57,198 bases of DNA from Escherichia phage JLK-2012: sequence record NC_049942.1, one strand, 5' to 3'. The notes beneath the pieces were generated by a model. It worked only from the letters and a program-made list of their open reading frames with translations, did no database searches and was not told the DNA's origin. Positions 10,382 through 14,106 of the stretch are shown here, one piece after another; position 1 is the first letter of the stretch; each line of letters opens with the position of its first letter. A program made the translations under genes and the position numbers.

Positions 10382-10546
10382 GAACTTTGGTGGTGTGGTA
10401 GGTGGGAGACCCATTTCGACCTGTTTCGGCCTACTTCAATTCGGCAATAGTCCCGCAGGCCTCGCCGCTTTACGTGCGACATATTCCCGTCCATGAACCC
10501 TTCACCACACCCCAAAGTTCACTTTGGTTATTGCGCTTTGTCAGCG
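10382..10546 (-). promoter_or_regulatory. nutL region and N leader: boxA-like CGCTGACAAAGCG (10534-10546, minus strand), palindrome CCAAAGT-N2-ACTTTGG (10512-10527) and long-range inverted repeat (10382-10399 vs 10503-10520)
   Basis: The same 13-mer boxA-like sequence recurs at the nutR position (14047-14059); the inverted repeat arms are reverse complements with one indel. Confidence 0.5.
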
Positions 10547-10825
10547 CCGTAGATTCATATTCGAATCGTTGTATATTCACCGCCCTGGTGAGTAATGCGT
10601 CCTGCTGACGACGATAATAATGAACCAATAGTTCGACATTATCAAGAACTATTGGTACGAATTTTGGTGATTTATTAACTCTACGAAGTATGATTCTGAT
10701 ATATAAGGAAATTTATTTTTGAAAATGTGGCTGATGAAGGTTATGCGGCAGGGATCATAACTGCATGGTTTAGCGAGTTACATCAATAAATACAATTGGT
10801 TATGTTTTTTAGGTGGGCGAACGTG

Positions 10826-10855
10826 AGGCAAAGAAAACCCGGCGCTGAGGCCGGG
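10826..10855 (-). terminator. Rho-independent terminator ending the immunity-region leftward operon
   Basis: Minus-strand hairpin CCCGGCCTCAGCGCCGGG followed by TTTTCTT, directly after the stop of the 54-aa ORF. Confidence 0.7.
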
Positions 10856-11020
10856 CTAGATTTTAAAGTATTTATCTTTTAGAGATGTAGATGTAAAACT
10901 TTTCGCCTTTGAAAATTTTTTGTCATCAGAAGGGCTTATGAACTCATCTTTTTTGTAGGGAACCGCTAATGCTGCATCACGTCTGCGAGGCAGCTTGCTT
11001 ACTTCCTCGCGCTTTTTCAT
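10856..11020 (-). CDS. Small lysine-rich hypothetical protein (54 aa)
   Basis: ATG 3 bp downstream of the kinase stop; MKKREEVSKLPRRRDAALAVPYKKDEF...; ends at the terminator. Not in the supplied track. Confidence 0.35.
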   Translation of the reverse strand: MKKREEVSKLPRRRDAALAVPYKKDEFISPSDDKKFSKAKSFTSTSLKDKYFKI

Positions 11021-11022
11021 GA

Positions 11023-12069
11023 TCAGTTATCCTTTAATAACCTATACAGTTTTGTAGGGGTACATCCTGAGGATATTGTTAAGTTCGTAGCACGCCTTTT
11101 CCGCCCATCATCGTATAAACGAAAACCAGTAGTAGACGAATTTTCTGCGTCAAAAACTATAGACAGTATAGCGTCCCCAGACTTTTTTTGCCATTCGCAT
11201 GTGCCGTTAGTTGGTTTCGTCATCTGTAGACGCCAGTCAAGAACGCCATCACTTATAGCTGAGAGATCGTTTAGTACATCTAGTACGGATTGATATCTTT
11301 CATTTGGATCTACATGAATGCATTTGTTCACTATTGTTATTAATTTTTTATGTATATGGGGAGGATACTCTTTTAATGGATAGCAGCCATTAATTATCGA
11401 CTCTCTGAGTTGTTCAATCGTGCTAAATGCAGATCTTTCTCTTTCAAAATTATCATGTCCAACACACATTCTATATATGGTTAATCCTGCCTGATATATG
11501 TCATATGTGAAATTATAATCATTTGTTGATAAAGAAAAATATTCCGGTGGCACATGAAAATGATATCCAAACTCAGGCGCAGCTCTCGATTCCTCATTGA
11601 CTAACTGAGATAATCCAAAGTCAGATAGCATGGCCTCATTTCTGTTTGATATCATAATGTTATTAGGTTTTATATCAAAATGCATAAGACCTTTTGAGTG
11701 TATATGATAAAGTCCACTTAAAAATTGAATGGAATACCGTATTATCTCCCTGCTTGTAAGATTATTTTTTTTCATTAATTGGTTTAGCGAACCATTATGA
11801 TAAAATGGCATGGCTATATAGATATTGCTCTCACATTGAGCAGCATACTGAACTTGCACAATATTTGGATGTGCATGTTTATAGAGAAGCCTTGCTTCAT
11901 TAAAGTAGTCGTCGTGGTTAGTGTTTTCTTTTTTTTCTATTTCTTTAATCACCAAGTCATGAGCTAGGTGTCTGTCATGAGCCAGATATACTTTTGAAAA
12001 ACAACCCTGTTCTTCTAGATCACTAATCCATTCGAATTCTACATCAGCTCTTTTGTATGGAGTTAGCAT
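11023..12069 (-). CDS. stk: Eukaryotic-like Ser/Thr protein kinase (Stk-like, as in Stx phage 933W)
   Basis: 348 aa with kinase subdomain motifs: catalytic-loop HFDIKPNN, DFG (SDFGLS), and a ~100-aa C-terminal extension; AT-rich; overlaps upstream gene by 7 bp (ATGCTAA). Confidence 0.85.
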   Translation of the reverse strand: MLTPYKRADVEFEWISDLEEQGCFSKVYLAHDRHLAHDLVIKEIEKKENTNHDDYFNEARLLYKHAHPNIVQVQYAAQCESNIYIAMPFYHNGSLNQLMKKNNLTSREIIRYSIQFLSGLYHIHSKGLMHFDIKPNNIMISNRNEAMLSDFGLSQLVNEESRAAPEFGYHFHVPPEYFSLSTNDYNFTYDIYQAGLTIYRMCVGHDNFERERSAFSTIEQLRESIINGCYPLKEYPPHIHKKLITIVNKCIHVDPNERYQSVLDVLNDLSAISDGVLDWRLQMTKPTNGTCEWQKKSGDAILSIVFDAENSSTTGFRLYDDGRKRRATNLTISSGCTPTKLYRLLKDN

Positions 12070-12524
12070 CCCCTTACCTCCGCAGATAGTGCAGCCAAAA
12101 CAGCTTCATTTGTTTCAGTTGTAAAACCAGAATTATCGATTCCATTTATATTGCGGTGTGACTTCAATATTTCTTTATACTCGATCTCTGTTAGGTTCAA
12201 TGATGATTTCATGCCAGATTTTCTAATAGTGTAATATTTTCTTACATCACTGCTTGAAAATGCTTCTTGAATAACAGCTTCTATATAAAGGCGGTCAATG
12301 CTAAGATTATCAGAGTTTGATTCAGTAACGCGTATGGCAGCTAATTCAACATTATATAAATTAAGAATGTCGAGGATGTTATTTCTCACATACTTTAATT
12401 TTTCTGGTGTGTCTAAGGTCGAAGGTATTTTAATAACATCAACACATTTGAGTGCAGACTCATTAGTGCAATATACAACAAAAGATGTAACTTTGGGCGC
12501 CGCTCTAACACCTAGTATTCTCAT
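12063..12524 (-). CDS. Hypothetical protein co-transcribed with the kinase (possibly DUF3010-like)
   Basis: 153-aa ORF, stop overlaps kinase start (translational coupling); N-terminus MRILGVRAAPKVTSFVVYC...; family assignment is a weak recollection. Confidence 0.6.
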   Translation of the reverse strand: MRILGVRAAPKVTSFVVYCTNESALKCVDVIKIPSTLDTPEKLKYVRNNILDILNLYNVELAAIRVTESNSDNLSIDRLYIEAVIQEAFSSSDVRKYYTIRKSGMKSSLNLTEIEYKEILKSHRNINGIDNSGFTTETNEAVLAALSAEVRGC

Positions 12525-12591
12525 TTTTTATATCCTATTTTAGAATCAGGCCGCATCTCTGCGACCATCCATCATCCAAACGTCTCTTCAC

Positions 12592-12933
12592 TCATCCGAA
12601 GAAGCAGCAATCCGGGTCAGCACGCACAAGCTCAAGCGCATCAGTCAGCGAAAGTTCAGTACTGTACTGATGCCATTTCATATCCTTCCGCATCCAATAG
12701 ATTTTCCATCTATCCAGAGAACGTATGTACTTGATTCTTGCTGATGGCAGGATGTTTGTTTCACCTGGATTGCCCTGCCACACGGGGCGCTGTTCGCCGA
12801 TATCTATCGTTTGGTCATTGATGCTATAAACAATATCCAGTTCATTGCGGATATGTTCAGGCGGCCTTATGCTTTCAATGAATTGGTGAACTTCTTTTTT
12901 TACTGCTTGATATTCAAGGTCATTGAACGCCAT
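12592..12933 (-). CDS. Hypothetical protein between cI and the kinase operon
   Basis: 113-aa ORF with AAGGAGG Shine-Dalgarno; flanked by a 15-bp direct repeat (12576-12590 and 12947-12961). Confidence 0.6.
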   Translation of the reverse strand: MAFNDLEYQAVKKEVHQFIESIRPPEHIRNELDIVYSINDQTIDIGEQRPVWQGNPGETNILPSARIKYIRSLDRWKIYWMRKDMKWHQYSTELSLTDALELVRADPDCCFFG

Positions 12934-12993
12934 CTATCCTCCTTACCCAAACGTCTCTTCAGGCCACTGGTTACCAGCTATGTGACGATGAAG

Positions 12994-13701
12994 TCACGAA
13001 CTTTTCAGCCACTCCCTTGCCTCGATGTCATCCAGATGGCGAGATTGCTTCAGAATACCAGCTACATACTCCACCTTTGCTACTTGATGATAAGGCAACG
13101 TTATAGGCCTGTGATCCTGGTTAATGCTTGTAAATTGGTATTCTCCATCTCTGTCATAGCCAAGAACCTTAATCATGTTGTGTCCTTCAACGGTTCTGAC
13201 AAACACCTCATCACCCGGGAATACTTTGGTGTTAGGCTCAATGAGTACATATTCTCCTGATTTTATTCTGGGCCACATGCTGTCTCCTTTCACACGAAGA
13301 CCAAAGGCATCTGGATCATCGCTATAAATTTTGAGCCACCCATCGCGCTCTTCGGTCATCTCGATGGCACCATCAACACCAAGAATTGCCTCACCAACCA
13401 CGCGCACTAACCCTTTTTTTAATTTGCCAACAAATGAAAGAGTATCTTCATCATTCGCTCCATTTAACGAAGTGCCGTGCTGAAGCCAAACAACATCAAC
13501 GTTTAGAAATTTCGCAAGCGCATTCATTTTTTCCTGACGCGGTAAAGACTCAGCATTAAACCATTTGCTAACGCCTTTGGACGAAAGAGAAAGGGCACGG
13601 GCTATAGCCATTCCCCTACCATGTTCATCAAGACCAGCTTCTTTACAGGCTTGCGCTAGCCGCTGGGCGAATTCTTTGCGCACTTTTTCATTCTGAACCA
13701 T
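12994..13701 (-). CDS. cI: CI-type prophage repressor (HTH plus S24 LexA-like peptidase domain)
   Basis: 235 aa; N-terminal HTH (RLAQACKEAGLDEHGRGMAIARALSLSSKGVSKW), C-terminal S24 autocleavage domain (GDSMWPRIKSGEYVLIEP); divergent from cro. Confidence 0.9.
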   Translation of the reverse strand: MVQNEKVRKEFAQRLAQACKEAGLDEHGRGMAIARALSLSSKGVSKWFNAESLPRQEKMNALAKFLNVDVVWLQHGTSLNGANDEDTLSFVGKLKKGLVRVVGEAILGVDGAIEMTEERDGWLKIYSDDPDAFGLRVKGDSMWPRIKSGEYVLIEPNTKVFPGDEVFVRTVEGHNMIKVLGYDRDGEYQFTSINQDHRPITLPYHQVAKVEYVAGILKQSRHLDDIEAREWLKSS

Positions 13702-13779
13702 GAGTACGATACTAAAGCACTTGCAAAAACTTTCAGTTCAACCATAATACGTACTGAAAGTACGAAAAAGGATATTCCT
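13702..13779. promoter_or_regulatory. cI-cro divergent promoter/operator region (OR, pRM/pR)
   Basis: 78-bp intergenic between divergent cI and cro with inverted repeats ACTTTCAGT (13729-13737) / ACTGAAAGT (13754-13762) and GTAC-containing half-sites. Confidence 0.65.
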
Positions 13780-14007
13780 ATGCAAAATCTTGATGAGCCG
13801 ATTAAAGGTGTCGGCATCCCTGAAGTTGCGAAGGCTTGTGGAGTTAGCGAAAGGGCTGTCTATAAGTGGCTCAAAAACGGCTTCCTCCCTAAGACTGAGT
13901 TTTTTGGGAAAACTAAATACGCATCAAAAATCGAAGAGATTTCTGGTGGCAAATATCAAGCAAGCGAAATGCTTGAAATAAGCAAAAAGAACCTTCTGGC
14001 TGCATAA
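13780..14007 (+). CDS. cro: Cro-type HTH regulator
   Basis: 75 aa, HTH (VAKACGVSERAVYKWLKNG), first rightward gene opposite cI. Confidence 0.8.
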   Translation: MQNLDEPIKGVGIPEVAKACGVSERAVYKWLKNGFLPKTEFFGKTKYASKIEEISGGKYQASEMLEISKKNLLAA

Positions 14008-14046
14008 GTAACACCGCTATTTTCACAATGGACATTCGTCCTACGT

Positions 14047-14106
14047 CGCTGACAAAGCGAGTCCCAATATATCTGACCAACTAAGGCCATATGCGTTTCC
14101 ACGCAT
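14047..14106 (+). promoter_or_regulatory. nutR-like site: boxA-like CGCTGACAAAGCG plus downstream hairpin ATGCG-TTTCCA-CGCAT
   Basis: The 13-mer is identical to the one upstream of N on the other strand; located between cro and cII. Confidence 0.5.

Follow-up and report, generated by a model that had tools for sequence, protein, structure and literature searches.

The repeated 13-mer of Escherichia phage JLK-2012 very probably forms the boxB hairpin cores of nutL and nutR

Introduction

The nut sites of lambdoid phages comprise, from 5′ to 3′, a single-stranded boxA, a spacer and a boxB hairpin. In lambda, boxA is CGCUCUUA and boxB is GCCCUGAAAAAGGGC (which we also folded here) or GCCCUGAAGAAGGGC. 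Here we examine a 13-mer, CGCTGACAAAGCG, that is repeated in Escherichia phage JLK-2012 (NC_049942.1), once beside the gene encoding the N antiterminator and once between cro and cII. The whole 57,198-nt stretch, referred to below as the window, was scanned on both strands. In all likelihood this is a lambdoid Shiga toxin (Stx) prophage of the 933W/H-19B type, and the two copies form the core of its nutL and nutR boxB hairpins.

Several related nut sites have been described. The record of phage 933W (AF125520) carries the annotations 'nutL; putative N-utilization leftward' and 'nutR; putative N-utilization rightward'. The nutR and nutL sites of H-19B (AF034975) were the subject of work by Neely & Friedman (1998, 2000) and of biochemistry by the Sen laboratory, and N-dependent antitermination at H-19B nutR has been studied with reporter constructs. 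According to the Sen laboratory, H-19B nutR forms two hairpins, and N together with NusA/NusG shields nascent RNA from cleavage at the spacer and at boxB, leaving boxA unprotected. The spacer is also protected by Rho, and the Rho-dependent terminator tR1 overlaps nutR. For P22, a complex of the N peptide with boxB has been solved, and its 15-mer RNA, as cited in PMC11480772, is identical to the nutL boxB of the window.

Results and discussion

Position of the repeated 13-mer

Exact copies of the 13-mer are present at just two places in the window, 10534-10546 (minus strand) and 14047-14059 (plus strand), as the initial annotation had reported. Frequent recurrence elsewhere in the prophage, which that annotation had set against a role in nut function, is not seen. 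None of 100 dinucleotide-preserving shuffles contained any copy (expectation 0), and allowing up to two mismatches adds a single site, 42123-42135, which is at chance level (1.63 expected; at least three matches in 23 of 100 shuffles). The stretch common to the two sites is longer than first noted, reading CTACG-N-CGCTGACAAAGCG with agreement at 18 of 19 positions. Adding one base pair to each 13-mer yields a 15-mer inverted repeat, GCGCTGACAAAGCGC on the N side (nutL) and TCGCTGACAAAGCGA on the cro side (nutR). The nutL 13-mer lies 167 nt 5′ of the N start codon, while that of nutR lies 40 nt past the cro stop codon and 87 nt ahead of the cII ATG (14146).

The earlier assignment of these positions to nutL and nutR agrees with the 933W record, which annotates both sites there. 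933W nutL (record positions 9614-9680) corresponds to 10533-10599 on the minus strand of the window and nutR (13096-13141) to 14015-14060 on the plus strand, with a constant offset of 919 bases, and the 13-mer forms the 3′ end of both annotated sites. A megablast search found the 717-base segment spanning N and nutL (9984-10700) to be 100% identical to 933W and to many Stx1a- and Stx2a-converting phages, and the region 9522-15200 is 99.93% identical to 933W. The nut sites are the same in the two phages, which differ in that 933W lacks a 1.3-kb insertion sequence (IS) directly 3′ of N.

Comparison with the nut sites of 933W/H-19B-type phages, which the initial annotation had proposed, was extended to H-19B. 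Between the cro stop codon and the cII ATG, nutR included, the two sequences agree at 144 of 144 positions. A single base separates their nutL cores, which run from CAGCAGGACGCA to CTTTGGGGTG and include boxB, and N is identical at 124 of 127 residues, with none of the three changes in the arginine-rich motif. The phages differ outside the nut sites, having unrelated cI and cro genes and N leaders with dissimilar interiors. In effect, they carry the same nut element in different mosaic contexts.

Published H-19B reagents also match the window. The Sen laboratory oligonucleotides RS662 ('antisense to nutR boxA of H-19B'), RS663 ('antisense to nutR spacer') and RS664 ('antisense to nutR boxB of H-19B') have reverse complements that match exactly at 14003-14026, 14024-14045 and 14042-14065, respectively, and a fourth matches at 14061-14086. 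The 13-mer falls inside RS664, the boxB oligonucleotide, and RS662, the boxA oligonucleotide, lies some 20-45 nt upstream.

The 13-mer as boxB rather than boxA

Both 15-mers fold as RNA into the structure (((((.....))))), a stem of about 5 bp with a 5-nt G...A loop, as a boxB should. Their RNA sequences are GCGCUGACAAAGCGC (nutL) and UCGCUGACAAAGCGA (nutR), and the outer stem pair is G-C in the former and U-A in the latter (Table 1). The minimum free energy (MFE) structure of each full annotated nut RNA consists of the spacer hairpin or hairpins and the boxB hairpin, and nothing else. CUACG stands immediately 5′ of boxB in nutL. In nutR, a spacer-hairpin variant with GGGC retains pairing via a G.U wobble. 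In P22, the nutL boxB is this very nutL 15-mer, GCGCUGACAAAGCGC, which contains the 13-mer as its core.

The initial annotation had compared the motif with lambda boxA, and here it needs correction. The hairpin fold, the position at the 3′ end of both sites, the coverage by RS664 and the identity to P22 boxB all identify the 13-mer as boxB. If it were instead a divergent boxA, it would be a single-stranded element for NusB/NusE (S10). The motif does begin with CGCT, as lambda boxA (CGCTCTTA) does, and it is common to both nut sites. However, only five of nine positions fit CGCTCTTTA (consensus [C/T]GCUCUU(U)A), and the 13-mer is self-complementary, folding as a hairpin. A boxA is placed 5′ of the spacer and boxB, whereas both annotated sites have the 13-mer at their 3′ ends, and in nutR the published boxB oligonucleotide spans it, with the boxA oligonucleotide upstream. 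Relatives have a canonical boxA (GCTCTTTAA or CGCTCTTT) 5′ of the homologous hairpin, and the stem covariation described below indicates a structural, not a sequence, constraint. We consider a boxA identity very improbable.

The boxA-like elements of the window lie upstream of the boxB hairpins. The one at the 5′ end of nutR, CGCTATTTTCA, differs from CGCTCTTT at position 5, and the aligned sequence of relatives reads CGCTCTTT or TGCTCTTT. Within it, the near-consensus CGCTATTTT (14015-14023), labelled boxA by the Sen laboratory, lies 22 nt 5′ of the nutR boxB. In nutL, the putative boxA is CGCATTACTCA; VT2-Sakai nutL has the canonical GCTCTTTAA, and none is found at that place here. Among 74 loci with identical N and boxB, nutR boxA occurs as three alleles: CGCTATTTT in 44 (including this phage), CGCTCTTTT in 28 and CACTCTTTT in 2. 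This polymorphism suggests that selection on boxA may be relaxed in this N system. BOXA, NusB and S10 are reportedly dispensable for H-19B N. A relaxed boxA constraint also fits the title of Neely & Friedman (2000), which refers to a lowered need for host factors. In this N system, boxA appears to be a separate, degenerate element upstream of the spacer and to matter little.

N protein and its RNA-binding motif

N is 100% identical to the N protein of 933W. It scores 57.5 bits with the N_peptide model of Pfam (PF25694), for which the cutoff is 27.9, and P22 gp24 and VT2-Sakai N belong to that family too. The description of N as a non-lambda protein in the initial annotation stands, the family being P22-like. 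The arginine-rich motif occupies residues ~9-27, GNSRSRRRERLKAKALANG, and is encoded at ~10287-10343. It aligns with GNAKTRRHERRRK of P22 gp24, and a multiple alignment pairs FKGNSRSRRRERLK with FAGNAKTRRHERRR. A PDB sequence search with N gave no meaningful match, the search minimum being 20 residues and the P22 N peptide having 19.

P22 and the window share more than the family of N. The arginine-rich cores are similar, following GN[AS][KR][TS]RR[HR]ER, and because of this P22-like core the P22-type boxB is shared as well. The two differ in that P22 has a canonical boxA, GCTCTTTAAC, just 9 nt 5′ of boxB with no spacer hairpin, and in that a C.C mismatch closes the loop of its nutR boxB. After the core, the N motif continues as LKAKALANG here but as RRKLAIERD in P22, and the central regions of the proteins are unrelated.

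Lambda is more distant. Its nut sites occupy the same positions (between pL and N, and between cro and cII), with the same order of boxA, spacer and boxB and the same 5-bp stem with a G...A pentaloop. However, the lambda stem is different, its loop is GAAAA or GAAGA rather than GACAA, and its N belongs to a different family. Compared with lambda, this phage has an extra hairpin in the spacer and a degenerate boxA.

Conservation, covariation and association with N

To follow boxB across prophages, we used 80 viral contigs from IMG/VR encoding an N protein 99-100% identical to that of the window. The boxB 15-mers are invariant (79/79 loci for nutL and 74/74 for nutR), and there is never more than one copy per strand. 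The distance between nutL and nutR takes 41 distinct values, from 1265 to 3515 nt, and the sequence directly 5′ of nutR comes from at least five unrelated cro 3′ ends. Since boxB is invariant over these spacings and cro ends, its companion is N rather than the immunity module.

Wherever a locus has one copy alone, a contig end truncates it, the exception being L083 (IMGVR_UViG_2585427768_000008). This is the sole locus with full flanks that has a 933W-type N and nutL without a nutR 13-mer within 5 kb. A G27C change (…ALANCVLA) alters the arginine-rich motif of its N, and the left flank is unrelated sequence in which the nutR spacer motif is missing. L083 may be a rearranged or decayed prophage.

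A wider tabulation of ~280 loci added the N types of VT2-Sakai, P22 and S137 to that of 933W. The boxB loop tracks the type of N arginine-rich motif, GACAA accompanying 933W/P22-type motifs and GAAA accompanying short ones. The 933W/H-19B motif (…RRRERLK[AV]KALANG) occurs with the two GACAA hairpins listed in Table 1, and the P22 motif (…RRHERRRKLAIERD) with GACAA loops at both sites, the nutR loop being closed by the C.C mismatch. The SPN9CC variant has GCUCC-GUCAA-CGAGC at nutL and UCGCU-GACAA-GGCGA at nutR. The short motifs (…RRRERRAAL or …RRRARRANL) occur with a GAAA tetraloop at both nutL and nutR.

The stems of these hairpins covary. In a set of 12 distinct hairpins, registered by hand with N as a placeholder in the tetraloops, 96.7% of stem cells are paired, compared with 70% after shuffling. 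Covariation scores 0.615 in the real set and 0.131 in the shuffled ones, none of the 500 shuffles reaching 0.615. Compensatory changes are found in three of the five pairs, the outer pair being U-A, G-C, C-G or A-U and the second C-G, G-C or A-U. Controls in which the register was slid give 18-45% pairing. The conserved features of boxB are the U-A pair closing the loop and the G and A residues of the loop.

These observations also bear on whether the 13-mer acts as DNA, namely as a palindrome, such as an accessory operator, to which a dimeric protein of the phage or its host binds, instead of as an RNA element. It is an inverted repeat (CGCT..AGCG), its copies flank the cI-cro immunity region, and the antisense strand folds as well as the sense strand, so that folding energy does not discriminate between strands. 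However, the asymmetric GACAA loop is the same way round relative to transcription at both sites, the copies being inverted as pL and pR are. The stem bases vary freely with pairing kept, which is unexpected for a DNA recognition palindrome. Further, the motif travels with N rather than with the cI/cro module, its loop co-varies with the RNA-binding motif of N, and RNA footprints on the identical H-19B sequence show N-dependent protection. A DNA site is, in our estimation, no more probable than a boxA. Least probable of all is a chance match or a functionless, hitch-hiking remnant of a duplicated module, for although the repeat is short (13-19 nt), no chance copies are expected, it is invariant in 74-79 independent loci in which the sequence a few bases away and the immunity module vary, and it shows both stem covariation and correlation with N type.

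Besides the folding of the antisense strand, several points weigh against identifying the 13-mers as boxB. An Rfam scan of 9500-15500 at E <= 10 returned no nut or boxB family, just spurious snoRNA and leader matches. BLASTP of N against P22 gp24 aligns the C-terminal 30 residues only, and the arginine-rich likeness of the two proteins is short, being visible only in the multiple alignment and in Pfam. In the tabulation of ~280 loci, hairpins were sought only beside the sense-strand anchors CTACG or GCTCTTTA, and the association between motif and loop is therefore no independent test of strand. Finally, binding and antitermination by this boxB would be functions transferred from H-19B through sequence identity.

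A tetraloop class of boxB

The VT2-Sakai/S137/SF6-type phages have the same order of boxA, spacer hairpin, CUACG and boxB as the window, near-identical nutR flanks and an N protein in PF25694. They differ in having a GAAA tetraloop boxB, with one C fewer, and an N motif 7 residues shorter (RRRERRAAL or RRRARRANL), a correlation that extends across ~130 loci. The tetraloop is present at both nut sites (nutR UCGCU-GAAA-AGCGA) in VT2-Sakai (L007), S137 (L005), SF6 (L006), 75/02 Stx (L008) and the loci L090-L169 and L250-L305, and the arginine-rich motif of the accompanying N always falls 7 residues short of the 933W type. No description of this tetraloop class was found in the literature searched, much of the relevant literature being outside that search.

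It is possible, though we hold the idea only tentatively, that PF25694 N proteins fall into two specificity classes, one pairing a GACAA pentaloop with a long motif (…RRRERLKAKALANG or …RRHERRRKLAIERD) and the other a GAAA tetraloop with a motif 7 residues shorter (…RRRERRAAL). The nutR boxB of the two classes is one loop nucleotide apart, with flanks otherwise near-identical. Should the two classes prove functionally orthogonal, Stx prophages sharing a host would be shielded from one another's N by a loop indel of one base and a small indel in the motif. A natural tetraloop boxB, if true, also raises the question of how NusA engages without an extruded loop base.

Genomic setting and neighbouring features

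The coordinates of the nut-site elements and their neighbours are collected in Table 1.

Table 1. Nut-site elements and neighbouring features of the window
Feature	Position	Strand	Evidence and remarks
N antiterminator gene	9984-10367	-	Open reading frame (ORF), 127 aa
N-leader long-range helix	10380-10522	-	MFE folds of this phage and 20+ diverse leaders; adjoins nutL, outside the 13-mer
nutL boxB, GCGCU-GACAA-AGCGC	10533-10547	-	15-nt RNA hairpin, 5-bp stem and pentaloop; MFE -7.1 kcal/mol, z = -3.2
Rest of annotated nutL	10548-10599	-	933W annotation and MFE fold
nutL spacer hairpin, GAUUC-GAAUAU-GAAUC	10567-10552	-	MFE; loop varies across loci, stem kept
nutL hairpin, UCACC-AGGGC-GGUGA	10591-10577	-	MFE fold
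nutL putative boxA, CGCATTACTCA	10599-10589	-	Start of 933W nutL annotation; poor match
pL candidate, TTGATA-17-CATTAT	10617-10645	-	Consensus scan 9/12, a pattern match only; pL not annotated in the 933W record
cI	12994-13701	-	ORF map
pR, transcribing cro then nutR	13721-13748	+	Consensus scan; coincides exactly with the 933W pR annotation (record 12802-12829 + 919)
cro	13780-14007	+	ORF map
nutR boxA-like element, CGCTATTTTCA	14015-14025	+	5′ end of annotated nutR; inside RS662 span
nutR spacer hairpin, GGAC-AUUC-GUCC	14030-14041	+	MFE; boxA-boxB interval, covered by RS663
nutR boxB, UCGCU-GACAA-AGCGA	14046-14060	+	15-nt RNA hairpin; MFE -5.6 kcal/mol, z = -3.8
cII	14146-14442	+	ORF map

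The ORF map is that of a lambdoid early region, with O and P to the right of cII and four genes, among them a homologue of the stk kinase gene, between cI and the N promoter region. The pL candidate would place nutL ~60-70 nt into the leftward transcript in the sense orientation, and it and pR are oriented so as to transcribe both copies of the 13-mer in sense. The two copies are mutually inverted because the pL and pR transcripts diverge. Scanning also identified sites resembling intrinsic terminators downstream in both operons, for example at 16424-16447 (+) and 8039-8018 (-).

The N leader contains a long-range helix. Its 5′ arm, GUGAACUUUGGGGUGUGGU (10522-10504), pairs with the 3′ arm CACCACACCACCAAAGUUCAU (~10400-10380), which ends directly 5′ of the N Shine-Dalgarno sequence CAGGAGG. 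Across 93 distinct leaders from ~273 loci and four N types, the helix has a conserved base and covarying inner arms, and it encloses a mosaic stretch of 50-200 nt. The lambda N leader has an RNase III-sensitive hairpin, of which, by analogy, the helix is probably the counterpart.

Three other features of the region were observed. A hairpin, UAUGCGU-UUCC-ACGCAUA, lies at 14089-14108 (+), 3′ of the nutR boxB and before cII, in the region that the Sen laboratory designates nutR/tR1. At the aligned position SPN9CC and SF6 have UAUGCGC-CAGU-GCGCAUA, in which C-G replaces U-A as a compensatory change, whereas the hairpin of P22 is a different one. A bidirectional terminator-like hairpin at 10836-10857 overlaps the tM annotated in 933W (10834-10855 here) and divides the cI-stk maintenance transcript from the pL/nutL region.

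The third is the 1.3-kb insertion at 8213-9521, not found in 933W, where a 4-bp overlap at the junction suggests target-site duplication. It encodes, on the minus strand, IS3-family-like OrfA (9141-9467, 108 aa) and OrfB (8254-9141, 295 aa). The gene that it disrupts, a homologue of 933W L0079, lies directly 3′ of N, within the N-antiterminated pL operon. We take it to resemble IS629.

Proposed mechanism and significance

By analogy with H-19B and the lambda/P22 paradigm, the divergent pL and pR transcripts would both carry the motif in sense, and in each RNA it would form a GACAA pentaloop on a 5-bp stem, with U-A as the closing pair. The P22-like N (N_peptide family) is proposed to bind the boxB loop through its N-terminal arginine-rich motif, as the literature on the H-19B sequence indicates, with NusA engaging the adjoining spacer. 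Through looping of the RNA, N and NusA, possibly with NusG, would then remain attached to RNA polymerase during elongation and render it resistant to termination. This resistance would cover the Rho-dependent tR1 overlapping nutR and the downstream terminators of both early operons. The predicted outcome is delayed-early expression and ultimately expression of Q and stx.

These boxB sites are already known, since they are annotated in 933W and have been characterised experimentally in H-19B. The contribution made here is their confirmation in this phage and the correction of the motif from boxA to boxB. The invariance of boxB across mosaic immunity modules, the co-variation of N motif and loop with its tetraloop class, the polymorphism of boxA, the covarying N-leader helix and the IS 3′ of N are modest leads, not discoveries. 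N-nut antitermination drives delayed-early transcription in Stx-converting phages and, via Q, contributes to Shiga toxin expression; correct location of boxB therefore matters for annotating and engineering these prophages.

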